Below are positions 8,580 through 21,333 of a stretch of 64,000 nucleotides of DNA, piece by piece. This stretch comes from Ignavibacteriales bacterium (GTDB lineage Bacteria; Bacteroidota; Ignavibacteria; UBA10030): NCBI GenBank assembly GCA_026390585.1, contig JAPLFP010000201.1:1247-65246 (forward strand), in the 5' to 3' direction. The position numbers were made by a program, and so were the translations under genes. The notes under the pieces were generated by a model. That model had not been told where the DNA came from and made no database searches. It saw nothing but the letters and a program-made list of their open reading frames with translations. The first letter of the stretch is position 1; every line of letters starts with the position of its first letter.

Positions 8580-8855
8580 TCAGCGCGGTGTGTGTGCGAC
8601 CAGCCCGTAAATTCCAACCAATGTGGATTCGTGAAGATTGGGACCTTCGATTTCTTCAAACTCCTTTATGAACTCAGAAAAGAGAATGCGTTTAGGCTTC
8701 GGACTAATCTTCTCTTTGAAATCTGTGAGAAATACGAGTGCTTCACGCTTTCGCTTCGCTTTTGTCGACTTCCAGTGTGTTCGACCTCCGTCTCTGAATA
8801 TAACATACCAGAAACCGTTGGAGCGCTTGAATAGAAAGAGGCTAGTGATATTCAT
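8580..8855 (-). pseudogene. N-terminal remnant of a tyrosine recombinase/phage integrase (catalytic domain missing)
   Basis: MNITSLFLFKRSNGFWYVIFRDGGRTHWKSTKAKRKREALVFLTDFKEKI...LFSEFIKEF matches the arm-binding plus start of the SAM-like N-domain of Bacteroidota-type integrases. The ORF stops after about 90 aa. No R..HxxR..Y catalytic region follows before the neighbouring gene at 8494. Confidence 0.6.
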
Positions 8856-9104
8856 TTTGTCACTCCTTTTTTTTGCGTCCATTAGTGTAGTTGAATAGGT
8901 TACCACGTTCCGTCCATTCGCTACCCAAAGGCTTCACCCGCGTACGATAATCAATTTCGCAGAGGGAGAATCATCCCGATTCTCGTTCTAGGTGTCATCC
9001 GAGAAGATCACTACCGTCCATTCGAACCTGCCCCCGTTAAACATATATGGCTTAAGCAGATGCGTGGTTTTTCACCGTTTTTTCAATATACCGAGTTTCC
9101 GGTA

Positions 9105-9265: not shown

Positions 9266-9451
9266 ATGCCCTCGTACCACATCAGCGAATCAAAAACGCG
9301 ATATAGCATCATCGATCCCCAGGTCAAGAAAGCTGGATGGAATCTCTCCGAGCGTGCGCAGGTCGCATTCGAGATTCTCGTCGCAGAATATGACGGCTCA
9401 GTTTCAGAGAGCTTCGCCGACTACTTCGTCCACAGTACCAAAACACGATGA
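9266..9451 (+). CDS. Truncated HsdR-N-like (restriction-endonuclease N-domain) mini-ORF, stop overlapping the hsdR start
   Basis: SESKTRYSIIDPQVKKAGWNL...FADYFV resembles the sE..tR..ID..L...GW...aDY.l opening of type I R-subunit nuclease domains. It ends before the E-x-K strand. ATGA overlap with hsdR at 9448-9451. The track start is TTG 9257; ATG 9266 is preferred. Confidence 0.5.
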   Translation: MPSYHISESKTRYSIIDPQVKKAGWNLSERAQVAFEILVAEYDGSVSESFADYFVHSTKTR

Positions 9452-12201
9452 ACCAGAACGCTGAGCAAAGAGCCCGTGACAACATCGACAAGCAACTCCA
9501 AGCTTGCGGTTGGGCAGTTCAGGACAAATCGAAAATCAACCTCTCGGCCGCCATTGGCGTTGCAGTGCGAGAGTACATGACCGACGTCGGTCCGGCTGAT
9601 TACATCCTCTTCGTTGACAAGAAACCTGTTGGCGTTATTGAAGCGAAACGCGAGGAAGAAGGAGTGAAGCTGACCTCGCATGAAGACCAATCTTCTGATT
9701 ATGCCACAAGTAAGCTGAAGTTCCTGAAGAATGATCCGCTTCCATATGTGTACGAGAGCACCGGGGAGATAACGCGTTTTACTGATTATCGGGACCCAAA
9801 ACCACGCTCACGGCCGGTGTTCACCTTCCACAAACCCGAGACATTTCGTGAGTGGCTCAAGCAGCCAAAGTCCCTCCGTGGCAGATTGCTTGATCTACCT
9901 CCGTTGCTGACCCAGGGTCTACGCGAGTGCCAAACCAAAGCAAGCAACAATCTTGACGTTTCGTTTAAAGACAATAGGCCGAAAGCGTTGCTTCAAATGG
10001 CAACCGGGTCAGGGAAGACCTACACAGCGATTACAGTCATCTACAGGCTTCTGAAGTTCGCGGGTGCAAAGCGCATTCTGTTTCTCGTGGACACGAAAAA
10101 CCTGGGTGAACAGGCTGAACAGGAATTTATGGCCTATGTACCAAGTGACGACAATCGATTGTTTACAGAGTTATACAATGTGCAACGGTTGAAATCGAGC
10201 TACGTTGCGACCGATTCCCAAGTCTGCATCAGCACGATACAGCGGCTCTATTCCATCCTGCAGGATAAAGAACTTGACGAATCTGCCGAAGAGGAAAATC
10301 CAGCGGAAAGGAATTGGCAGCCGGCAGCACCGATGCCAGTAGTATATAGTAAACACCTGCCGATTGAGTTCTTTGACTTCGTGGTGATCGACGAATGTCA
10401 CCGAAGCATCTACAATCTCTGGAAGCAAGTGTTGGACTATTATGATGCCTTTCTTGTCGGTTTGACGGCGACGCCAGACAATCGGACATTCGGATACTTC
10501 AATCAGAACATCGTGAGCGAGTATTCACATGAAGATGCGGTCGCCGACGGCGTAAACGTCGGATTCAACACATTCTTGATTGAAACGAGCATCACGAAGA
10601 GAGGCGCGGTGGTCTGGAAGGGTGAGTATGTGGATTTTCGCGAAAAGCTCACTCGAAAAAAACGCTGGGAGCAGGTGGATGAGAATGTTGCCTACGCTCC
10701 TCGTGAGCTGGATGATGAAGTCGTAAACCCGAACCAGATCAGGGTTGTCATCAGTGCGTACAGAGACCATCTGCCAGAAATATTCCCGCATAGGACTGAA
10801 GTGCCCAAAACACTCATTTTTGCAAAAAGCGACAGCCACGCAGATGACATCATTCAAATTGTGAGGGAAGAGTTTGCAGAAGGAAACAAGTTCTGCAAGA
10901 AAATCACGTACACCGCGGACGACCCAAAATCCACGCTTGCGCAATTCCGAAACGATTATTATCCCCGCATCGCCGTTACGGTGGACATGATTGCCACCGG
11001 CACCGATGTGCGGCCTCTGGAGTGTCTCATCTTCATGCGCGATGTCAGGAGTCGCAACTACTTTGAACAAATGAAAGGGCGCGGAACCCGGATTATCTCC
11101 TTGGATGATCTCAAGAAGGTGACGCCTTCAGCGCAATACACAAAAGATCATTTCGTTATCGTCGATGCGGTTGGTGTGAGCAAATCGCTCAAAACGGATA
11201 GCTGTCCCCTTGAACGCAAGCCCGGCATATCCCTGAAGGACTTGCTGGCGGCAGTGGCTGTGGGAGCGAGGGATGAAGACCTGTTCTCGACGCTGGCAAA
11301 CAGACTGGTCCGATTGGGAAGGCAGATCACCGAAAAGGAACACGCGCTTTTCATCGAAAAGGCACGTGGTAAGACCATCACAAAGGTGGTGAAGGAACTA
11401 CTGAACGCCTACAACCCCGACACCCTTGAGGAAATCACAGCGAAAATACAGACCGAAAAGTCGGGCGCTTCCCGCGATGAAATCGAGTCTGCTATCCAGA
11501 GCGCGCACTCTGATATCATAGAACAAGCTGCCGTCACTTTTACGGGAGATTTGAACACCTTCATCGAGAATGTGCGCAAGGTACACGAGCAGGTTATTGA
11601 TATTATAAATCCTGACAAGGTGGAATATGCCGGATGGCAGGAACACTCTAAGGAAGACGCATCTGCACTTGTGAAGGATTTTACCACATGGATTGAGGCG
11701 CACAAGAACGAGATTACAGCGCTGCAAATATTCTACGGCCAACCATACCGCAGACGTGAACTGACCTACGCAATGGTGAGGCAGTTGGTGGAGCTCTTAC
11801 GAGCCGACAAGCCCCCTCTTGCCCCGTTGCGTGTCTGGCAGGCGTATGAGCAATTGGAGCAGGTAAACGGCTCGCCCAAGAATGAGTTGATTGCCCTGGT
11901 CTCACTAGTCCGACGTGTATGCGGTATTGATACTGCACTCACTGCATACGACAAGACCGTGGACAGAAACTTCCAGGCATGGGCGTTTAAGAAGCAGGCC
12001 GGAGCTCTGAAGTTTACCGAAGAGCAAATGCAATGGCTGCGGATGATAAAGGACTATGTTGCCACCTCGTTTCATATTGAGAAGGACGATTTTGATCTCA
12101 GTCCATTCAATGCGGAAGGCGGACTTGGCAAGGTGTGGCAACTCTTTGGCGAGCAGACTGAGAGTATCATTCAAGAACTGAACGAAGCGTTGGCGGCGTA
12201 A
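9448..12201 (+). CDS. hsdR: Type I restriction enzyme R subunit (HsdR; EcoAI/EcoEI-like with EcoEI_R_C-type tail)
   Basis: Nuclease N-domain ADYILFVDKKPVGVIEAKRE; helicase motifs QMATGSGKTYTAI, VVIDECHRS, GLTATP, QMKGRGTR; a long helical C-terminal domain. Confidence 0.95.
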   Translation: MNQNAEQRARDNIDKQLQACGWAVQDKSKINLSAAIGVAVREYMTDVGPADYILFVDKKPVGVIEAKREEEGVKLTSHEDQSSDYATSKLKFLKNDPLPYVYESTGEITRFTDYRDPKPRSRPVFTFHKPETFREWLKQPKSLRGRLLDLPPLLTQGLRECQTKASNNLDVSFKDNRPKALLQMATGSGKTYTAITVIYRLLKFAGAKRILFLVDTKNLGEQAEQEFMAYVPSDDNRLFTELYNVQRLKSSYVATDSQVCISTIQRLYSILQDKELDESAEEENPAERNWQPAAPMPVVYSKHLPIEFFDFVVIDECHRSIYNLWKQVLDYYDAFLVGLTATPDNRTFGYFNQNIVSEYSHEDAVADGVNVGFNTFLIETSITKRGAVVWKGEYVDFREKLTRKKRWEQVDENVAYAPRELDDEVVNPNQIRVVISAYRDHLPEIFPHRTEVPKTLIFAKSDSHADDIIQIVREEFAEGNKFCKKITYTADDPKSTLAQFRNDYYPRIAVTVDMIATGTDVRPLECLIFMRDVRSRNYFEQMKGRGTRIISLDDLKKVTPSAQYTKDHFVIVDAVGVSKSLKTDSCPLERKPGISLKDLLAAVAVGARDEDLFSTLANRLVRLGRQITEKEHALFIEKARGKTITKVVKELLNAYNPDTLEEITAKIQTEKSGASRDEIESAIQSAHSDIIEQAAVTFTGDLNTFIENVRKVHEQVIDIINPDKVEYAGWQEHSKEDASALVKDFTTWIEAHKNEITALQIFYGQPYRRRELTYAMVRQLVELLRADKPPLAPLRVWQAYEQLEQVNGSPKNELIALVSLVRRVCGIDTALTAYDKTVDRNFQAWAFKKQAGALKFTEEQMQWLRMIKDYVATSFHIEKDDFDLSPFNAEGGLGKVWQLFGEQTESIIQELNEALAA

Positions 12202-12202
12202 A

Positions 12203-13528
12203 GTGATTAAGAACTCCCATACTCAGAATGGACTTCCTGATGGATGGATAGAATCCAAATTGCGAGATGTGTGCGAAGTCTTAGATAGTCAAAGGTCTCC
12301 TATCAATTCTGAGGAAAGGCAAAAGAGGATTGCTGGAAAATCGCAGAGTGAGCTCTTTCCATACTTTGGAGCGACTGGACAAGTGGGTCATATCGATGAC
12401 TTCTTGCTTGATGGAGAATTCGTTCTTCTTGGGGAAGACGGGGCTCCGTTCTTGGAACCATTTAGAAACAAGGCTTACCTCGTTAAGGGAAGGATCTGGG
12501 TTAACAATCATGCTCATATTTTAAGGGCCTTTGCCTCCAACAAATTCCTCTGTCACTATCTGAATCAAGTCAACTACAGGGATTTTGTTACTGGAACGAC
12601 TCGACTGAAGCTCAATCAGTCGAGGATGAATGAAATACCTGTTCTTGTGCCTCCGCCTCCCGAACAACACCGCATCGTAGAAAAAATCGAAGCCCTCTTC
12701 AGCGAGTTGGATAACGGCATCGAGCAACTCAAGAAAGCACAACAGCAACTGAAAGTTTACCGCCAGGCCGTGCTCAAGTGGGCGTTTGAAGGGAGGCTCA
12801 CGGATGACAATGTTGTGGATGGGGAATTGCCGAGAGGATGGAAGTGGAAACAATTGCAAGAGATTACTTCAAGGCTTGGTGATGGATTACACGGGACTCC
12901 TGTCTATTCGATAAACGGTGGTTATCATTTCATCAATGGCAATAATTTGTCCGAAGGGAAAATTGTATTGAAGGACAATACCAAAAGAGTGTCTTATGCC
13001 GAGTATGAAAAGCATAAAAAGAACCTAAATGACAAAACGATTTTAGTTTCAATAAACGGAACATTGGGAAATACCGCATTTTATGGCGGCGAGAAAATCA
13101 TCCTCGGCAAGAGTGCTTGCTATTTCAATGTCACAAGTGAAGTGGACAAGCACTACCTGAGATATTTACTAACAGGTCAACGATTTCTCAACTATGCTCA
13201 TAGAACAGCGACAGGAAGCACGATAAAAAATGTTTCATTGAAATCAATGAGAGCATTTCAAGTCCCATTGCCCCCAACAACTGAAGAGCAAAGGACAATA
13301 GTTCAGGAGATCGAAAAACGACTTAGTGTATGCGACAAGTTAGAAGAAACCATCACCGAGAGCTTAAAACAAGCAGAAGCCCTGCGCCAGAGCATTTTGA
13401 AGAAAGCGTTCGAAGGAAAACTCGTCCCGCAAGATCCGAAGGATGAACCGGCGAGTGTGTTGTTGGAAAGGGTAAATGGAGAAAAAAGTAGTGGCAAGCC
13501 GGAGAACAAGAAGAGTTCGGTGACATGA
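12203..13528 (+). CDS. hsdS: Type I restriction-modification specificity subunit (HsdS), two TRDs
   Basis: LPDGWIESKLRDVCEV and LPRGWKWKQLQEITS open the two target-recognition domains. The conserved helical spacers are PPPPEQHRIVEKIEALFSELD and PPTTEEQRTIVQEIEKRLSVCD, with WVNNHAHIL also present. GTG start lies 1 nt after the hsdR stop. Confidence 0.95.
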   Translation: MIKNSHTQNGLPDGWIESKLRDVCEVLDSQRSPINSEERQKRIAGKSQSELFPYFGATGQVGHIDDFLLDGEFVLLGEDGAPFLEPFRNKAYLVKGRIWVNNHAHILRAFASNKFLCHYLNQVNYRDFVTGTTRLKLNQSRMNEIPVLVPPPPEQHRIVEKIEALFSELDNGIEQLKKAQQQLKVYRQAVLKWAFEGRLTDDNVVDGELPRGWKWKQLQEITSRLGDGLHGTPVYSINGGYHFINGNNLSEGKIVLKDNTKRVSYAEYEKHKKNLNDKTILVSINGTLGNTAFYGGEKIILGKSACYFNVTSEVDKHYLRYLLTGQRFLNYAHRTATGSTIKNVSLKSMRAFQVPLPPTTEEQRTIVQEIEKRLSVCDKLEETITESLKQAEALRQSILKKAFEGKLVPQDPKDEPASVLLERVNGEKSSGKPENKKSSVT

Positions 13529-14136
13529 GCAAGAAGCAACCACATATTGCGAAACTCAGAATAGCTGTTGTCTCCACGATTTATGGTTTTGAAGACCAGT
13601 TGGAACAGGTATGTTCTACGCTGCAAGGCTATGGCTACGAAGTCTGGAACTCGCATTTCAAGACTCTCCCGGTCGACCCCGCGAAGTCCAATACGGAAAA
13701 CTGCCTCAAGGCGGTGGAAGCTTGCGACCTTCTATTCGGTATCATCCGTCCTGTCTATGGGACGGGAGTCATTGCCCCTCTATCCATCACACACCAGGAA
13801 ATGTTGAAAGCAATAGAACTCAAAAAGCCCAGGTGGTTTATTGCTCATAGGGACATAAGCATAGCCAGGCAATTGTTAAAGCAATATATGTTCGATGCCG
13901 GCAATCAACCCAACCCGGCATTTGTCTATCAACCCACCAAAGTGATAGACGATATTCGAGTCATACACCTCTATAACGATACCATTTTAAACAATGTGCC
14001 GCCGGCTGAGCGCATAGGACATTGGGTAGATGAATATTTCCGCTTAGGAGATATTCTCAAATGTGTTGCAACACAGTTCGAGAATGTTGAGAGAGTGAGG
14101 GGCATTGTGGAACAAATGAAACAGCAAACACCATGA
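13525..14136 (+). CDS. DUF4062-like (TIR/nucleoside-deoxyribosyltransferase-like fold) protein embedded in the R-M operon
   Basis: RIAVVSTIYGFEDQLEQVCSTLQGYGYEVW...NCLKAVEACDLLFGIIRPVYGTG...SITHQEMLKAIELKKPRWF follows the DUF4062 pattern as I recall it. ATGA overlaps occur at both ends (13525-13528 and 14133-14136). Confidence 0.55.
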   Translation: MSKKQPHIAKLRIAVVSTIYGFEDQLEQVCSTLQGYGYEVWNSHFKTLPVDPAKSNTENCLKAVEACDLLFGIIRPVYGTGVIAPLSITHQEMLKAIELKKPRWFIAHRDISIARQLLKQYMFDAGNQPNPAFVYQPTKVIDDIRVIHLYNDTILNNVPPAERIGHWVDEYFRLGDILKCVATQFENVERVRGIVEQMKQQTP

Positions 14137-15632
14137 AGCGAGAACAGTTGATACGGGATCTGATTCGCCAGGGCGAAAGCGAACAGCTCGAACTAAAAGC
14201 GGAGGTTCGCAATGAAGTCATTGCCAAGACTATCTGCGGCTTTCTCAATGGTGAAGGCGGCCAGGTTGTGGTTGGCGTAACGGGTGAGGGCAAAGTCGTT
14301 GGGGTAAAGAATGCAGAAAGGACAGAATCAGAACTGCAGCGCTATTTGATTGACACTATTGTCCCCGAGGCACCTGTCACGGTCTCAACCGAGCAAGTCG
14401 GCGACAAAGACATTCTCCTGGTAAAGGTATGGGGCGGTTCCAGGAAGCCGTATGTGTTTGGCGGTTCCATTTTCTATCGCAGAGGAAGCCAGACCGTTGC
14501 AGCCACTTCAAGAGAGATTTCAGACTTGATTCAGACGCGTCAACAAACCGATGCCCTCTGGGAACGCCAACCCGCGCTGCGGGTTGAAGTCGATGATCTT
14601 GACCTCGAGGAAATCCGTAACACCATTCGCCACATTAATGAGTCCGGTAGAGGCAAGACACTCTCCGACGACATCCCGGAGTTTTTGTCCTATCATGGTT
14701 TGTACCAAAACGGGCACGTGAGCAATGCCGCTGTAGTATTGTTTGGCAAAGAACCGGCGCGTTTTATTCCACAAATCTGCGTTCGGTTCTCAGTTTTCGC
14801 TAGCGGTAAGACGGGCTCTTCGTTCAGCGAAGACCGCGTCCTCGAGGGTAATCTCTTCAAGAACATCGAAGAAATTCAAGACCTTTTTAAGAAGCATATT
14901 GCTTTCAGAAGTAAGTTTGACAAGACCCAATGGCAAAGGACAGACGGCTTTCTCTATCCGATGGATGCACTACGAGAAGGTGTGCTGAATGCGCTGGTGC
15001 ACCGCGATTATTCCAACGTTTCCGGAACAGCTTCTGTCTTTGTTTTTCCGGACAAAATAGAAATAAGCAATTATGGCAGATTGCCTCATGAGATTACGAT
15101 AGCAGATTTGAGGCGGAACCATTATTCGCTGCCTCATAACCCTGATATTGCCCAGATGTGTTTCTTGAAGGGTTATATTGAGAAAATAGGTAGAGGCACG
15201 TTGAAGATTATTGAAGCATGTAAGAGTGCCGGCTTAAAAGAACCTGTTTGGAGCACTGAAGCTTCTTCTATAAAACTCACGTTCTTCAGTAACGTCAAGA
15301 TTGCGCCCCGCAGTAGGCAAGCAGAGGGGGGAATAACCGGGGGGGTAAGCAAGGGAGTGTTAGCCAGTGTTGAGGGAGTAATTGAGGGAGTAACTGAGGG
15401 AGTAAGTGAGGATGTAAAAGACAAAATTAAAGAGATTCTTCTCGTTGTATACAAAAACGAAGGCCTCAGAATTCCGGAAATTGCCCACAAAACTGAGACA
15501 CCAATTAAAAGCGTTGAGAGATATGTCAAACAACTGAGGCTTGCCGCATTGATAGAGTTTAGAGGTGCGCCAAGAACTGGCGGCTATTTTATCACAAAGA
15601 AGGCGGCGGCGAAAATTAGTAAAAGCAAATGA
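14133..15632 (+). CDS. AlbA_2 (Schlafen-like) + HATPase_c_4 (RecG-C-like) + C-terminal wHTH protein
   Basis: ESEQLELKAEV...ICGFLNGEGGQVVVGV...GKVVGV (AlbA_2); NALVHRDYS...IEISNYG...PHNPDIAQMCFLKGYIEKIGRGT (HATPase_c_4-type); C-terminal IPEIAHKTETPIKSVERYVKQLR (wHTH-like). Confidence 0.75.
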   Translation: MKREQLIRDLIRQGESEQLELKAEVRNEVIAKTICGFLNGEGGQVVVGVTGEGKVVGVKNAERTESELQRYLIDTIVPEAPVTVSTEQVGDKDILLVKVWGGSRKPYVFGGSIFYRRGSQTVAATSREISDLIQTRQQTDALWERQPALRVEVDDLDLEEIRNTIRHINESGRGKTLSDDIPEFLSYHGLYQNGHVSNAAVVLFGKEPARFIPQICVRFSVFASGKTGSSFSEDRVLEGNLFKNIEEIQDLFKKHIAFRSKFDKTQWQRTDGFLYPMDALREGVLNALVHRDYSNVSGTASVFVFPDKIEISNYGRLPHEITIADLRRNHYSLPHNPDIAQMCFLKGYIEKIGRGTLKIIEACKSAGLKEPVWSTEASSIKLTFFSNVKIAPRSRQAEGGITGGVSKGVLASVEGVIEGVTEGVSEDVKDKIKEILLVVYKNEGLRIPEIAHKTETPIKSVERYVKQLRLAALIEFRGAPRTGGYFITKKAAAKISKSK

Positions 15633-15837
15633 GGACTGTGTTGGTCGGAACCGGCAGAGGGGAAAAGGGGTCACAAGGGGCTCAAAGGAATCATGCGACG
15701 AAGAAGATGAAAAAGAACAAAGAGTGGACGAAGAAAGCATGATGTCGTCATCGTCCTCCTCCCCGTTATCATCCTCGTCGCCACCATCGTCCTCATCGAC
15801 GGCGGCGGCATCGGCAGCACGGTCGCATTCATAAACA

Positions 15838-17343
15838 ATGGAATACAACTTGGACAACAACAGCGCAAGCATTATTTCTAAAGTCTGGAGTTTCTGTAAC
15901 ACGCTTCGTGATGATGGAGTGGGCTACGGAGATTACCTGGAGCAACTCACGTATCTGCTTTTCCTCAAAATGGCGGATGAGTACTCCAGGCCCCCGTACA
16001 GCAGGCGTCTGCCTGTTCCCAAAGAATACAACTGGGAAAGCCTTGTATCGAAACGTGGCGCTGATCTCGAATTGCATTACACTACCTTACTCAGGGAATT
16101 AGCGCAGCAGAAAGGAATTCTCGGACAGATCTTCACCAAAAGCCAGAACAAGATACAAGACCCGGCAAAGCTCTACAAGCTTATCGACATGATCAACCTG
16201 GAAAGCTGGGTTGTGATGGGGGCCGATGTAAAGGGGGACATCTACGAAGGTCTGCTGGAGAAGAATGCCGAAGACACAAAGAGCGGCGCCGGACAATACT
16301 TCACACCACGGGCGCTCATCAAGGCAATGGTGGAATGCATCCGGCCTGAGCCGATGAAAACCATCGCCGATCCGGCGTGCGGCACAGGTGGTTTCTTTCT
16401 GGCGGCATATGACTACATCGTGAAGAACAACCAACTGGACAAAGCGCAGAACCAGTTTCTGAAATTCACAACCTTCTATGGGAATGAGATTGTGGCAGGA
16501 ACCAGACGGCTTGCGTTGATGAATCTGTTCCTCCATAACATCGGCGATATTGATAGCGACAATTTCATTTCCCCCGCCGATGCACTCATCGCAGATTCCG
16601 GTGTGCGCGCGGATTATGTGCTGGCAAATCCGCCGTTCGGAAAGAAGAGCAGCATGACCTTCACGAACGAGGAAGGGGAACAGGAAAAGGAAGATCTCAC
16701 GTACAATCGTCAGGATTTCTGGGCTACAACGGGCAATAAACAACTCAACTTCGTACAACACATCCGTACAATGCTCAAAACAACCGGTCAGGCAGCGGTT
16801 GTTGTTCCGGACAATGTCTTGTTCGAAGGCGGTGCAGGGGAAACCGTGCGAAAGAAACTGCTCGAAACCACTGACCTTCATACCATCTTGCGCTTGCCAA
16901 CAGGCATCTTCTACGCCAATGGTGTAAAGGCGAACGTAATATTCTTTGATGCGAAGCCAGCTTCCAAAGAGCCCTGGACGAAAGAGATTTGGTATTACGA
17001 TTACCGCACAAACGTTCACCACACGCAGAAAAAGAACCCGATGCGATTGGACGATCTCCGGGATTTCATTGAATGCTATCGTCCTGCCAACAGGCACAAA
17101 CGAAAAGAAACGTTCGACACAAAGACAAATCCCGACGGTCGCTGGAAAAAATTCACGCACGACGAGATCATCAACCGCGATAAAACGAGCCTTGATATCA
17201 CCTGGCTAAAGGACAAGAGCCTTACCGACCTGGATTCCCTGCCCGACCCCGATGTTCTTGCCGGAGATATCATTGAAAATCTCGAGGCTGGTCTGGCGAG
17301 CTTCAGAGCGATTATGGCTTCGATAAATGGGAAGAAATCCTAG
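15838..17343 (+). CDS. hsdM: Type I restriction-modification DNA methyltransferase subunit (HsdM, N6-adenine)
   Basis: HsdM_N-like start WSFCNTLRDDG..YGDYLEQLTYLLFLK; motif I DPACGTGGFF; motif IV LANPPFG. Confidence 0.95.
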   Translation: MEYNLDNNSASIISKVWSFCNTLRDDGVGYGDYLEQLTYLLFLKMADEYSRPPYSRRLPVPKEYNWESLVSKRGADLELHYTTLLRELAQQKGILGQIFTKSQNKIQDPAKLYKLIDMINLESWVVMGADVKGDIYEGLLEKNAEDTKSGAGQYFTPRALIKAMVECIRPEPMKTIADPACGTGGFFLAAYDYIVKNNQLDKAQNQFLKFTTFYGNEIVAGTRRLALMNLFLHNIGDIDSDNFISPADALIADSGVRADYVLANPPFGKKSSMTFTNEEGEQEKEDLTYNRQDFWATTGNKQLNFVQHIRTMLKTTGQAAVVVPDNVLFEGGAGETVRKKLLETTDLHTILRLPTGIFYANGVKANVIFFDAKPASKEPWTKEIWYYDYRTNVHHTQKKNPMRLDDLRDFIECYRPANRHKRKETFDTKTNPDGRWKKFTHDEIINRDKTSLDITWLKDKSLTDLDSLPDPDVLAGDIIENLEAGLASFRAIMASINGKKS

Positions 17344-17556
17344 GTGATGGGGCCGAGTGGGAGGCGTCCTCCGTTGGTTCGTACCCTCTGAACAGAGGGA
17401 AGCGATAAGCTCAAAATCTAAGAGTTCAACGTTGTACCGTTTGCATGGTTTAGTGTAGGCGGACTGCATCCAAGGTGATTGTCCGACCAGCAACAAGCGC
17501 CGAGCCGCGGCCACTGGTCTGTTAGTAGCAGAACCATCCTTAGGAGACGGCAAGAA

Positions 17557-18258
17557 TTGAAGTACGACACCGAATATGAACTTGTCGAAAGATTCATCGG
17601 CGATCTTGCTCAAAGCAATTCTACTACCGATCAGTGGATTCTGCTTCGAGAGATGAAAAGCGATTGGGGAGTCGTGGACCTCCTAGCCATCAGATTCAAC
17701 GGCGAGATGCTCGCGAAGAGACGCAATGAGATTCTTGGGCCCATGATAGTGCCGTTTAGTTCACTCGCGGCTTATGCGATGGTGTTTCTCATTGATCACC
17801 GAACAATGACTATTTCCGACCTGGGGTCCTTTCTGAAAGCCAAAAATGGTCGGTTAAGACAAGTGTTGGACCAGCTCATCGAGCGCAATCTAGTCATTCG
17901 CCATAAGACCGATTCAATTCGAGCTAGGGCGATTTCGACTACATTCATGATCAAGGACATTCTGGCGTTCGAAGCTAAGCTCTCGAAATGGCAAAGTGCG
18001 ATCACTCAAGCAGAACGGCACCTCTGGTTTACCAACAGCTCATTCGTCGTGCTGCCGCATTTGTCTGCAAGCGTCTACGGCAAAGCTCTTGCTGCTTGCA
18101 CTGATCGGGGGGTGGGACTTATTACATCGAATGAGTCGGGTTTGTTCAAAGTGGCAAAGGAGCCGCTCCACAAGGACCGAATTGAAAGCCACTTTGCTTG
18201 GAAAATCAACGAGTCTTTGGTGGATGGGAGCTTAATGAATGCAGCAATCCGTCCTTGA
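17557..18258 (+). CDS. PD-(D/E)xK-like nuclease-fold protein with an inserted winged-helix segment
   Basis: EYELVERF ... GVVDLLAI ... ILAFEAKLSKW ... QAERH has the spacing of an E / D / ExK / Q nuclease core. Between D and ExK lies MTISDLGSFLKAKNGRLRQVLDQLIERNLVIRH (wHTH-like). The track ORF starts at TTG 17479. I prefer in-frame TTG 17557, preceded by AGGAG at 17543-17547. The 3' end overlaps the kinase ORF by 20 nt. Confidence 0.5.
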   Translation: MKYDTEYELVERFIGDLAQSNSTTDQWILLREMKSDWGVVDLLAIRFNGEMLAKRRNEILGPMIVPFSSLAAYAMVFLIDHRTMTISDLGSFLKAKNGRLRQVLDQLIERNLVIRHKTDSIRARAISTTFMIKDILAFEAKLSKWQSAITQAERHLWFTNSSFVVLPHLSASVYGKALAACTDRGVGLITSNESGLFKVAKEPLHKDRIESHFAWKINESLVDGSLMNAAIRP

Positions 18259-19093
18259 TAGGTTGACCGCATCATTGCCGGACCTCAATGTAAGTTCGGA
18301 AATCAAGCGAGGCGGGCAGAAGGTCGTTTTTCGCGCTACCTACAGGGGCAATGTCAAAGCGGTATTCAAAGTGGTTATGCCACAAAGCTCGGAGGAGCGA
18401 GAACGCGCCCTTCGAGAAATTGCTATCACCTCTGAACTAGGCTCACCACTATTTGCGAGAATACACAGTTACGGAGAATTTGAGTATGACGATAACTCCG
18501 TAATCTATGTCATCGAGGAATTGATTCCCGGCAGCAATTTGCGCGACCTGATACAAGCAGCTACTCCCGGTCTGCTCCCGCACGGCGAGGCACGTCGCAT
18601 AATCTCTTCGGTCTTGAATGCATTGGAGATGACCGAGGCTCGCAACCTCGTGCACAGGGACATCAAGCCGGAGAACATAATGGTCACCGAAGACAGAGTT
18701 GTACTTATTGATTTTGGGATTGCTCGGCATCTCGACCTTGCCTCCTTGACCAATACCTGGGCTCCATTCGGCCCCATGACACCAGGCTACGCGCCACCTG
18801 AGCAGGTGAGAAACGAAAAGCGGAGGATATCTATTCGGACAGACTTTTTCTCACTGGCAGTCGTGACCTATGAATTATTGACTGGCTTCAATCCATTCAT
18901 AGCTGGCACCCGAACCGCAGGTGAGGCTATTCAGCGCGTGCTCACGTTCAATCCTCCTCATCTTTCGACATACGGCTACCACGAATCATTTGACCTCTTC
19001 GTAGGTTGCGCGATGTCCAAATACTGCAATCGACGGCCAGCGAATGTCGCGATGGCGAAGGCTCTCTTCGCACAAATCCAATGGGAGGCGTAA
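18239..19093 (+). CDS. Hanks-type Ser/Thr protein kinase, catalytic domain only
   Basis: GGQKVVFRATY (G-loop-like), KAVFKVV (Lys), LVHRDIKPENIMV (HRD), IDFGIAR (DFG), GYAPPE (APE). No TM, FHA, PASTA or TPR extension. Confidence 0.9.
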   Translation: MQQSVLDRLTASLPDLNVSSEIKRGGQKVVFRATYRGNVKAVFKVVMPQSSEERERALREIAITSELGSPLFARIHSYGEFEYDDNSVIYVIEELIPGSNLRDLIQAATPGLLPHGEARRIISSVLNALEMTEARNLVHRDIKPENIMVTEDRVVLIDFGIARHLDLASLTNTWAPFGPMTPGYAPPEQVRNEKRRISIRTDFFSLAVVTYELLTGFNPFIAGTRTAGEAIQRVLTFNPPHLSTYGYHESFDLFVGCAMSKYCNRRPANVAMAKALFAQIQWEA

Positions 19094-19094
19094 T

Positions 19095-20261
19095 ATGTTC
19101 CTACTTCAGCAAGGACACGGAATGCTTGGAAGGATCGAGCAATTCCTGGATGAGCATCCACATTCAGGGCTCATCATCTCACCGCGAATCTGTGAAAGAG
19201 ATCAGTTGGAAAGGTACTTGCCTGGATTCAAAAGAGTGGCGAACGCTCAAATATTTTTCGATCCGCATTTCTATGAGCCTCGAACTGACCTGGTTCGCGT
19301 ACTTTCATATCCGTACTTCGAGAACTACAACTTTCAGACGGCCATTTTCGATAGCCGGCAGTTCTGTGAGGAAGTAGTTTCGTATCAAGTGGACGCGCTA
19401 GACCTGGCAAATATCATCTTGCCAGGCAGGTACTCAAACGCGGTTACCGAAGCCTGGCTGGAAATGCAACGAGCATTCGCGGATGTTGGTGCAGCAGCAA
19501 GGCCCGCGAAAACTGTGTATTCGACTATCGCACTTGGGCCTGATGCGATACTGAACGTAGATAGCTGGAATCAGGTTTTGGATGAGGTGGTGAACTATCC
19601 AGTTGACGGCGTATATTTTGTGTTCGAACATCTGAACAACTCTTATTTCATGGATGAGGAGTTCTTGTACGTAATCCTGAATGGCTTGTTAAGTCTGTCA
19701 CTAGCTGGGAAGAAGATAATAGTTGGCTACGCAAATCAGCAAAGTGTTGCTCTGGCAGCAGCCGGAGTTGATTGGTTTGCATCAGGAAACTATCGCAACG
19801 TGCGCTCCTTCGATCATCAGAACAGCACAGATAGAGACACGGAGCACTTCCATCGTGCTGTTTGGTACTTCGATGGCAATACGTTTGGCGAATACCGAGT
19901 GCCGGCACTAGCCCTTGCGTTTCGGCGCGGGCTTCGCGATCATTTCGGTCCAGAAACTGTTCACAGCGCCGATCTGCTTCGGAGTGAGCGACCAGCCCTG
20001 TGGACTGAACCTGCGGCTTTTGCGCATTATCTTCACCTGATGCATGCTTACTGCGAGGGCTTTCGACACGCCCCGAAAGCGGAGCGTGCTGCCAGAGCTA
20101 TGCAGTTCTTTTCGGAAAGGCAAAATGCCACCGATCGGCTCGCAGAGGCCCATTTTAGTTTTGGCGACCGAGGCTTCAATGTCGCCGTACTTGCGACACT
20201 CGCGGCTTTGGAATCCTTCAACCAGGACAGGGCTCAAGATATTCGTCAGTTGAGTGATTGA
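19095..20261 (+). CDS. Hypothetical 388-aa protein, no motif recognised (alternating beta/alpha pattern)
   Basis: The ATG lies 1 nt after the kinase TAA (the track ORF 19044 extension overlaps the kinase and is rejected). Short hydrophobic strands (LIISPR, IFFDPHFY, IILPG, VYSTIALG, GVYFVFEH, KIIVGYAN, VDWFASG) alternate with helices. Confidence 0.6.
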   Translation: MFLLQQGHGMLGRIEQFLDEHPHSGLIISPRICERDQLERYLPGFKRVANAQIFFDPHFYEPRTDLVRVLSYPYFENYNFQTAIFDSRQFCEEVVSYQVDALDLANIILPGRYSNAVTEAWLEMQRAFADVGAAARPAKTVYSTIALGPDAILNVDSWNQVLDEVVNYPVDGVYFVFEHLNNSYFMDEEFLYVILNGLLSLSLAGKKIIVGYANQQSVALAAAGVDWFASGNYRNVRSFDHQNSTDRDTEHFHRAVWYFDGNTFGEYRVPALALAFRRGLRDHFGPETVHSADLLRSERPALWTEPAAFAHYLHLMHAYCEGFRHAPKAERAARAMQFFSERQNATDRLAEAHFSFGDRGFNVAVLATLAALESFNQDRAQDIRQLSD

Positions 20262-20419
20262 CATTGTTTCCGTATCCTACAACAATGCGGGGAGCAAAAA
20301 AAGGGGAATGAACGCTTGCAGAACGGGGCGTGGAGACGCGGGTCCCGGTAAGTTAGCCTCAAGCTCAGAACATGGATGCCTTATTCGGTGAATTTATTCC
20401 GCACACGTCTTGAGGTAAC

Positions 20420-20848
20420 ATGGAAGACACAAAGGCACAAATCGAAGCTGAAAAATGGATACGGGAGGAATACTTGCCGAAGAAGTATGGGCAATCCTTT
20501 CGGCAGAAGAATCTGGACCTTCAGAGCAGAACTCAATCCAAATTTGATGCCGTCTCTGATGACTGTGAGATAGTGGCCATGATATCCACAAGCGCCGGTT
20601 TCACTTCGAGCGATAAGGTAGCGACTGCTGAATTGATGAGGGTCAGGTCGGACGCGCTGCGGTTTCTCATGCTCGAAGCCACACCTCAAAAACGCCTGAT
20701 GATATTTACCGATCACTCGATGATCGACCTCGTGAAGGACGAAAAGAAGAAAGGTCGATTCCCATCAGAGCTTGAGATCCTGAAAATAAAGCTGCCGACT
20801 GATCTTGCGGCAAGGGTTGCCGAATCCCCAAAAACAGAATCAGAATAA
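20420..20848 (+). CDS. Hypothetical 142-aa protein at the distal end of the island
   Basis: ORF with its ATG about 160 nt after the previous stop. KFDAVSDDCEIVAMISTS ... RLMIFTD is vaguely nuclease-fold-like, but I cannot place catalytic residues. Confidence 0.45.
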   Translation: MEDTKAQIEAEKWIREEYLPKKYGQSFRQKNLDLQSRTQSKFDAVSDDCEIVAMISTSAGFTSSDKVATAELMRVRSDALRFLMLEATPQKRLMIFTDHSMIDLVKDEKKKGRFPSELEILKIKLPTDLAARVAESPKTESE

Positions 20849-20893
20849 TTAGATGCTATCTCAAAAACACTCTCGCAAAGCCCCGCTCCTGGG

Positions 20894-20987
20894 TCCCGCT
20901 TATGAGCGGGATCCCAAAAGGCGGGATCGCAAAGTCGCAAAGAAATTTATAAAAGGGTTGTTCTTGGCGAGCTTTGCGCCTTTGCGA
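20894..20987. repeat. Intergenic REP-like element, copy B (homologous to 1903..2010)
   Basis: TCCCGCTTATGAGCGG core, then CGCAAAGT CGCAAAGA, about 30 nt, then CTTTGCGC CTTTGCGA (complementary word doublets). Confidence 0.7.
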
Positions 20988-21333
20988 GAAGAATTCTCAA
21001 GCCATACGACATTTTTGAGATGGGTTCTAGAAGCCATTCCCGATAACAACTACAATGAGGTCGTTTTCCGTTTCATGCTCTCGCGTAGTTGGTAGCTCTC
21101 TTTTCAATTCAGTCAACGCCCCCCAGTTGCCACAGAAATTCTTCTTGCTGCGAATTCAATCTCAAAATGAGAACACGTTATGAGGGCTTGTGTGAACGGA
21201 CTCATTTCAAGCTTACTTTCCCAAGAGTCGTCTCAAGCGCGGAGGAGCCGCTGTGGGTACTTGCACTTCCCAATAAGATAGAGTACTATAACAATCAATT
21301 CAGGATGCACGTTTTCTTTTTGAGGAAATTGAA

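Follow-up and report, generated by a model that had tools for sequence, protein, structure and literature searches.

A 64,000-nucleotide (nt) stretch of the Ignavibacteriales contig JAPLFP010000201.1 (positions 1,247 to 65,246; assembly GCA_026390585.1), hereafter the window, carries a compact operon of three genes, here called A, B and C, that on balance probably serves in conflict or defence, most likely as an uncharacterised cassette directed against phages or plasmids. Gene A (17557..18258, forward strand; 233 amino acids, aa) encodes a predicted PD-(D/E)xK nuclease with a MarR-like winged helix-turn-helix (wHTH) inside its core. Gene B (18239..19093, forward strand; 284 aa) encodes a stand-alone Hanks-type Ser/Thr protein kinase catalytic domain, and gene C (19095..20261, forward strand; 388 aa) a protein whose family is unannotated and whose model shows a TIM barrel with a helical bundle at its C-terminal end. 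The features by which a defence module is recognised operationally were found together here: a conserved multigene module, neighbours belonging to defence systems and mobile elements (judged qualitatively) and a patchy, horizontal distribution.

As judged by profile comparison, the composition A-B-C matches no named system. The families of A and C are unannotated, with neither protein belonging to a Pfam or NCBIfam family or matching a PADLOC defence model, and B scored below the MAD6, PglW and PknB cut-offs. In addition, no description of the trio was found in the literature, including the DefensePredictor and language-model papers. The lack of a matching named system had been claimed in the note from which this study started (the original prediction, made from the letters alone), and the comparisons with curated families that it proposed thus agreed with it.

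Co-inheritance and layout of the three genes

The original prediction proposed a search for co-occurring homologues, and the trio was found to recur in about 30 loci (including the window) of unrelated bacteria and archaea. The genome scan, which covered one genome per species (representatives of 185,579 species) and used two peptide patterns, gave 20 loci, a number that is a lower bound; exact-protein look-ups and searches of plasmids gave further loci. When the word-index search was repeated with a broad alignment, nothing new was obtained. B was located directly upstream of C in 29 of the 30 loci, the exception being a Wukongibacter locus (L019; the loci are referred to by such numbers where necessary) that holds a fragment of C and no trace of A or B. 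A was present in 28 of the 30, and the contig of L007 ends before the position of A. The usual order was A-B-C, whereas two distant branches of the family carried a rearranged trio, with the order B-C-A in L028 (708-3538) and B-C with a convergent A in L033 (2-2202). Because A, B and C are kept in all three arrangements, the three families have stayed together despite the rearrangement. Furthermore, A and C each matched the same three of 72,556 plasmids (two from Bacillus and one from the haloarchaeon Natribaculum), and the catalytic residues of all three proteins were conserved down to approximately 20% identity. No conserved flanking genes accompanied the cassette.

B and C were adjacent and codirectional in every arrangement observed, and their junction was the most conserved of the cassette. 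In the window, the stop codon of B (TAA, 19091-19093) is separated by a single base from the ATG of C at 19095 (junction 19091..19097, forward strand), and a GGGAGG lies just 5′ of C. A spacer of 1-3 nt or a 4-nt overlap was found in L001, L002, L004, L025, L026 and L028, and a spacer of 11 nt in L029. B and C are thus an invariant, translationally coupled pair. The original prediction had proposed the coupling of all three genes; the trio is real, but it had been missed that the invariant pair is B-C rather than A-B. At the other junction (18239..18258, forward strand), the end of A, with the stop codon TGA at 18256-18258, overlaps the start of B by 20 nt, as expected for translational coupling. 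The ATG of B at 18239 follows a GGGAG located 8 nt before it, and orthologous A/B junctions overlap in a comparable way, by 23 nt in L001 and by 8 nt in L002. Both junctions of the window had been described in the original prediction and were read directly in the sequence, and all four open reading frames (ORFs) that it listed were present at the positions given.

The starts of A and C were refined by comparison with their homologues. The longest ORF of A opens at TTG 17479, and the likely start is TTG 17557: this codon is preceded by AGGAG at 17543, homologue alignments begin at its position, and the resulting 233-aa product was already present in a public protein collection. Similarly, C starts at ATG 19095 and not at the upstream ATG 19044, as the homologue alignment begins at the 19095 Met. 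Promoter and terminator scans around the operon gave counts no better than those in shuffled sequence.

Predicted activities of proteins A, B and C

Protein A was predicted to be a PD-(D/E)xK nuclease, with the catalytic signature in its sequence and the core topology in its predicted model. Among 28 family members, down to 17% identity, E139, K141 and Q151 were invariant, and E32, G38 and D41 were at least 90% conserved. The AlphaFold2 model (predicted local distance difference test, pLDDT, 90.5) showed the topology alpha-beta-beta-[insert]-beta-alpha-beta, consisting of a helix at residues 6-20, strands at 26-35 and 38-47 (with D41 on beta2), an insert at 49-129, a third strand at 132-140 carrying E139-A-K141, a helix at 145-155 that contains Q151, and a final strand at 161-166. 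The insert of approximately 80 residues between beta2 and beta3 is a MarR-type winged helix. Among family members it matched the Pfam families MarR, MarR_2 (6e-5), HTH_24 (2e-5) and TrmB, the profile search against PDB matched 2eth (4e-4), and the Foldseek matches were MarR family proteins. These results agree with the proposal in the original prediction of a PD-(D/E)xK motif set split by a winged helix. In profile and Foldseek searches, no known nuclease family was recovered and only wHTH/MarR matches were returned; no E-value below 1e-3 was obtained against any nuclease, and the split core may defeat both profile and fold methods. Because no known nuclease family was matched, the assignment draws on motif conservation and predicted topology.

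In its E…D…ExK signature, its alpha-beta-beta-beta-alpha-beta core topology and its wHTH for DNA recognition, A resembles restriction endonucleases and other PD-(D/E)xK nucleases with a winged helix, such as Mrr-like type IV enzymes and those with Hjc-type cores. In contrast to these nucleases, in which the wHTH is appended, A has the wHTH inside the core between beta2 and beta3, and its gene is always accompanied by those of a kinase and a TIM-barrel enzyme.

Protein B matched the Pfam family Pkinase (PF00069) with 111.9 bits against a cut-off of 31.7 (E 4.6e-32, residues 19-267). K44, E60, HRDIKPxN (139-146), DFG (158-160), PE (187-188), D202 and R266 were invariant in 19 orthologues, as was T171 in the activation loop. 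No sensor, anchor or other extra domain was detected in addition to the catalytic domain. A kinase with every Hanks motif and neither sensor nor anchor domain was also what the original prediction had described.

The relationship of B to kinases of known defence systems was assessed with several models. The PADLOC models for PD-T4-6 matched B over nearly its whole length (PDLC04053, 1.1e-47; PDLC04042, 2.3e-43), followed by a mad6 model (2e-40), and both sets of matches covered the kinase domain only. The scores against NCBIfam MAD6 (NF047741; 94.3 bits, cut-off 460) and PglW (NF033442; 34.8 bits, cut-off 990) were far too low, B having 284 aa against approximately 1391 model positions of PglW, and the PknB model was also far below its cut-off. 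No Stk2 model was among the PADLOC matches listed (25 of 35). Published surveys reported that PADLOC alone calls PD-T4-6 in 99.7% of assemblies of the B. cereus group and in every S. thermophilus genome analysed, where the called protein is full-length and carries kinase-associated binding modules after its kinase domain (PMC11811056 and PMC11514479). Such near-universal calls indicate that the PD-T4-6 models are non-specific, and we argue that the match of B reflects generic kinase similarity. B was not assigned to PD-T4-6, since these models are generic and B was never alone, with A and C alongside it in 28-29 of 30 loci.

B shares intact Hanks catalytic motifs with the kinases Stk2, PD-T4-6, PglW (BREX type 2/Pgl), MAD6 (MADS) and TerY-P, and the cassette shares with these systems an accessory or defence-island context and a kinase as the presumed sensor or switch. 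Unlike PglW, MAD6 and the PASTA kinases, B lacks extra domains, and A and C have no counterparts in Stk2, PD-T4-6, BREX/Pgl, MADS or TerY-P. Stk2 and PD-T4-6 are single-gene systems, whereas B is organised in a multigene unit. The other named systems were rejected individually: MADS because the NF047741 score was far below the cut-off and A and C matched no mad model; BREX type 2/Pgl because of the low PglW score and because Pfam and PADLOC found no PglX- or PglZ-type genes in the cassette; and the TerY-P triad because neither vWA nor PP2C domains were found in A and C with the same two collections. The HsdM and HsdS proteins encoded in the window matched mad2 (1.4e-57) and mad5 (4.9e-39) models, although the type I restriction-modification (R-M) models fitted them far better (6.3e-193 and 2.2e-72), and a few neighbouring ORFs in other loci matched mad3 and mad8 models.

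Protein C had no match in Pfam, PADLOC 2.0, NCBIfam (June 2026), PHROGs or PDB sequences, and no Pfam domain was found in 32 sampled members of its family. The AlphaFold2 model (pLDDT 92.4; predicted template-modelling score 0.92) showed a (beta/alpha)8 TIM barrel followed by a helical bundle at approximately residues 305-384. Conserved positions included Q5/G7, S29-P-R31, D56-P-Q-F-Y60, P110/Y113/N115, G148/D150 and G172/Y174, together with G211-Y-x-N-Q-Q216 and G231-N-x-R-N-x-R237, and conserved polar residues were located at the C-terminal ends of all eight barrel strands. As this is the usual position of the active site in TIM barrels, C is probably an enzyme. The family comprised 74 clusters in a word search. 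In a profile search of 1.84 billion representatives, it comprised 976 clusters at 50% identity (E ≤ 1e-3), of which 166 remained at E ≤ 1e-30, and nearly all members were approximately 390-400 aa long. The statement in the original prediction that C has no nameable motif holds for matches to curated families, but it overlooked a conserved TIM-barrel enzyme.

Distribution and genomic context

The hosts of the cassette included about ten bacterial phyla, DPANN archaea and a haloarchaeal plasmid. Bacterial copies were found in Dehalococcoidia, Ktedonobacterales, Ignavibacteria, Calditrichia, Bacillus, Exiguobacterium, Cohnella and Clostridia, as well as in Pirellulales, Limnoglobus, Deltaproteobacteria and the myxobacterium Citreicoccus; archaeal copies were found in Aenigmatarchaeota, an unclassified archaeon and the haloarchaeal plasmid. 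C of the window shared 53-59% identity with the C proteins of Dehalococcoidia, Ignavibacteria, Calditrichia and two archaeal metagenome-assembled genomes (MAGs), one of the unclassified archaeon and one of an Aenigmatarchaeota archaeon. The cassette is thus rare, accessory and horizontally transferred across bacteria and archaea. Signs of decay were also observed. The Wukongibacter copy (L019, 10001-10948) retains only the last approximately 310 codons of C, and in the MAG loci L022 (6918-7809) and L027 (9144-10004) two ORFs take the place of one intact kinase gene, which may reflect pseudogenisation or assembly error. In RefSeq, the Bacillus mycoides copy is labelled hypothetical / serine/threonine-protein kinase / hypothetical. 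No copy was found in GenBank phages or IMG/VR, and a phage origin was rejected on these grounds.

The cassette lies 214 nt downstream of hsdM in a type I R-M operon (9448-17343) with matches to REase_I, Specificity_I and MTase_I (6e-193), which confirmed the position assigned to it in the original prediction. This operon is not a constant companion of the trio, as none of the HsdR, HsdS and HsdM proteins of the window had a homologue elsewhere among the loci, and the idea that one type I R-M system travels with the cassette was therefore rejected. Other R-M genes were found beside other copies: type I hsdS and hsdR genes of a different family directly upstream in L020, a type II methyltransferase in L005, a type IIG R-M system in L024 and, in L001, a type ISP R-M system with an ABC ATPase that matched HEC-04, PtuA and AriA models. 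A GajB-like helicase was found near the cassette in L023 and a pair of dynamin-like GTPases in L025, and an ORF adjacent to it in L033 has a DNA-methyltransferase-like motif (read by eye only). In Bacillus cereus (L002; 682-5671, 12020-17188), the trio travels with a DUF4365 protein and a STAND-type NTPase of 1541 aa as cargo of an element whose opening genes, three consecutive tyrosine recombinases, adjoin a Y-family polymerase gene that is truncated. Counted by Pfam family, the 105 ORFs sampled around the cassette in 17 loci most often matched Resolvase (five), ABC_tran, Recombinase and BPD_transp_1 (three each) and Phage_integrase, N6_N4_Mtase, ResIII and AAA_21 (two each). Proximity to defence genes, which the original prediction proposed to check, was thus frequent when judged qualitatively, with R-M systems, other defence genes and recombinases as common neighbours. 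The picture is that of a mobile accessory cassette that often, although not always, lands in defence or mobile-element islands.

Two further genes lie between hsdS and hsdM in the window. One (13525-14136) encodes a DUF4062 protein (Pfam, 3.9e-12), and the other (14133-15632) a 499-aa protein with SLFN_AlbA_2 and HATPase_c_4 domains and a C-terminal wHTH. They have the appearance of accessory defence genes inside the R-M operon. Both have 4-nt start/stop overlaps with their neighbours, and the 499-aa protein matched PADLOC pAgo-associated models at 1e-15. Its gene also contains, at 15371-15417, a 12-nt tandem repeat, TGAGGGAGTAAn, in 3-4 copies, which encodes EGV(I/T/S).

Downstream of the cassette, a 142-aa ORF (ORF D, 20420-20848) begins 158 nt past C. 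The original prediction had included it in the block, and it was rejected as a fourth component: it had no homologue in any of the 29 related trio loci, and its relatives occur in an unrelated setting. These relatives, hypothetical proteins with 34% identity encoded on two Azospirillum plasmids, have small unknown genes as neighbours, with a Fic protein and a PIN/Phd toxin-antitoxin pair close by. ORF D itself matched nothing in Pfam, NCBIfam, PADLOC, PHROGs or PDB. A promoter-like TTGACA-17-AACAAT is present at 20258-20286, 5′ of ORF D, which is an independent gene.

The limits of the island were less clear. The integrase remnant with which the island was said to open (a 108-aa ORF, 8580-8906, reverse strand) had no Pfam, PADLOC or plasmid tblastn match and was left unconfirmed. 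Beyond ORF D, the intergenic stretch 20850-21029 is rich in palindromes and contains GGGTCCCGCTTATGAGCGGGATCCC, with outer inverted arms at 20850-20867 and 21012-21029. The label of a REP-like element given to this end of the block could not be verified, because its 25-mer (20964-20988) occurs only once in the window. The window contained neither a tRNA gene nor convincing flanking direct repeats that would mark the borders of an island.

Proposed function and alternative explanations

According to the explanation we favour, A, B and C would constitute one self-contained, horizontally mobile operon encoding three active enzymes, namely a kinase-gated nuclease with C as a co-sensor or co-effector. 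Lacking a sensor domain, B must depend on a signal supplied in trans, presumably by a partner protein, and C would be the best candidate for this sensor or co-enzyme because it is the constant neighbour of B and has a conserved pocket. The ligand or substrate of the pocket at the top of the C barrel might be a small molecule, a nucleobase or some feature of nucleic acid that arises during infection. Activated B could then phosphorylate A, and possibly C or host targets, and this phosphorylation would license the winged-helix-guided DNA cleavage by A, with the result that the invader DNA is destroyed or the infection is aborted. A would be the best effector candidate because its sequence-reading wHTH is joined to a complete nuclease active site. 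That the cassette serves in defence, in which direction the signal runs and which substrates are used are all inferred here, as is the model of the original prediction in which a kinase controls a nuclease. A kinase or pseudokinase module gates a nuclease in RNase L and Ire1 of eukaryotic immunity and stress responses. The general logic is alike, although this is an analogy only: RNase L and Ire1 each unite both modules in a single polypeptide, their nuclease is an RNase of the KEN-domain type, and neither protein is known to be homologous to A or C.

Several points weigh against a defence role. L025, L026 (located by ruvABC) and L027 lie among ordinary metabolic or housekeeping genes, and the association with islands, frequent and not universal, was judged qualitatively. 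The word-index homologue searches were insensitive, and the context was sampled for approximately 30 of roughly 1000 family clusters. Moreover, the assignment of A as a nuclease is based on motifs and a predicted topology.

One alternative, which we regard as unlikely, is a modification-restriction system, in which C would be a divergent transglycosylase-like enzyme that marks self, A would cut unmarked DNA, and B would tune the balance. C would then exchange or remove a base of host DNA, or conjugate a nucleobase to protein as Cap10 does. In the Foldseek search of C against PDB, the top matches were the archaeosine tRNA-guanine transglycosylases (TGTs) 1j2b and 1iq8 (E 1.6e-4 and 8.5e-4), which aligned over the full length of C (approximately 385 columns) with template-modelling (TM) scores of 0.50-0.51 and root-mean-square deviations (rmsd) of 6.4-7.1 Å; other TIM barrels gave TM scores of approximately 0.35, yet their E-values were close behind. 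A viral model labelled queuine tRNA-ribosyltransferase appeared in the BFVD list of C, and C has a D-x-x-aromatic-Y motif after beta3. Low-stringency hhalign runs also paired, twice and with a probability below 1%, the segment EPxAFxHYL of C (305-313) with the SRAYLHHL region of E. coli Tgt (312-326); this region adjoins the zinc site in TGTs, and we regard the pairing (AFxHYL with AYLHHL) as an unexplained hint rather than as evidence.

Like members of the TGT superfamily (bacterial TGT, archaeosine TGT, DpdA and CBASS Cap10), C has a TIM barrel with a C-terminal extension, and members of this superfamily act in defence systems. DpdA, a transglycosylase-family enzyme, is one of them. Another is Cap10, which conjugates deazaguanine to protein in type IV CBASS and so lends the transglycosylase-like lead some interest (bioRxiv 10.1101/2025.04.06.647259). 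The architecture of A, with a wHTH and a PD-(D/E)xK core, is that of a sequence-reading restriction enzyme, and the cassette repeatedly adjoins DNA methyltransferases or R-M genes, as would suit such a system. In contrast, the sequence of C provides no link to TGTs. The TGT family PF01702 matched neither C of the window nor the 32 other family members, and the hhalign probability was 0.3% with E. coli Tgt and did not exceed 0.6% with a profile of six bacterial TGT sequences. C lacks the zinc-binding CxCxxC…H cluster of TGTs, and no Cys is conserved in its 42-sequence alignment. Of its aspartates, D56 alone is kept across the wider family, D150 and D260 are kept in the close family, and none was matched to the catalytic Asp pair of TGTs. 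Furthermore, the DNA-guanine transglycosylase DpdA (7ui4), although present in the PDB library, was outside the top 50 fold matches of C, no genes for 7-deazaguanine synthesis (preQ0 or queuosine pathways) were linked to the cassette, and a classical R-M system needs no protein kinase. Given the lack of a Pfam match, of profile similarity and of a zinc site, and a TM score of only 0.50 at an rmsd of 6-7 Å, membership of C in the TGT family was rejected, and the resemblance was kept as a structural lead only. A related and quite improbable reading is that B and a zinc-less transglycosylase-like C act as an obligate pair that would write or read a chemical mark controlling a restriction-type nuclease A; the mark could lie in nucleic acid, as an exchanged or excised base, or on a protein, as a nucleobase- or phospho-dependent modification.

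It also appears rather improbable that the cassette is an addiction (toxin-antitoxin-like) or maintenance module of mobile elements, in which the nuclease or the kinase would be a toxin checked by the other proteins and would stabilise plasmids or integrative elements. Its occurrence on plasmids and beside serine and tyrosine recombinases, its patchy distribution and its truncated or split copies are all compatible with this role, and the kinase toxins HipA and HipA-like DS-6 act in this manner (PMC13092281). However, a typical toxin-antitoxin pair is far simpler than this set of three enzymes (233-388 aa), whose active sites are all conserved, and no small, labile antitoxin-like gene is conserved with the trio. 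As many toxin-antitoxin modules are also abortive-infection defences, this explanation overlaps with the favoured one.

Metabolite-depleting effectors are common in defence, and the roles could in principle be reversed, with A as a DNA sensor, B as a relay and C as a TIM-barrel hydrolase or lyase that would abort the infection by depleting or altering an essential metabolite or nucleotide. The full conservation of the polar residues at the barrel top of C, the Arg/Asn-rich beta7-beta8 region, which suggests phosphate or nucleotide binding, and the invariance of the B-C pair would fit such an arrangement. Nevertheless, A retains every catalytic residue of a nuclease, which would be needless in a pure sensor, and C resembles no known NADase, nucleosidase or deaminase, leaving this assignment of roles with only a slim chance.

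The two remaining explanations carry very little weight. A housekeeping signalling or metabolic operon that adjoins the R-M genes by chance would explain the loci among core metabolic genes, but is very hard to reconcile with the extreme sparseness of the cassette, its near-identity across domains, its presence on plasmids and beside recombinases, its pseudogenised copies and its lack of conserved flanking genes. Least credible is B as a single-gene defence of the PD-T4-6 or Stk2 type with A and C as unrelated neighbours, for which the PADLOC PD-T4-6 matches over nearly the whole protein could be cited, since these models are non-specific (PMC11811056 and PMC11514479) and A and C accompany this clade of B in 28-29 of 30 loci, in three arrangements and two domains of life.

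If the cassette is a defence system, it would enlarge the small group of immune modules based on kinases by a new composition and would be one of the few such modules common to bacteria and archaea, including DPANN and haloarchaea. Current annotation pipelines would miss it or mislabel its kinase as PD-T4-6. It also brings to attention two unannotated families, a predicted PD-(D/E)xK nuclease with an internal winged helix and a TIM-barrel family of approximately 1000 clusters at 50% identity, whose member C may be an enzyme with a new activity towards nucleic acids, nucleotides or proteins. Should B and C indeed write or read a chemical mark, protein phosphorylation would be coupled to new TIM-barrel chemistry in the self/non-self discrimination of bacteria and archaea. 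More generally, a bare kinase that is always coupled to a probable TIM-barrel enzyme could serve as a compact model for the in trans regulation of eukaryote-like kinases.

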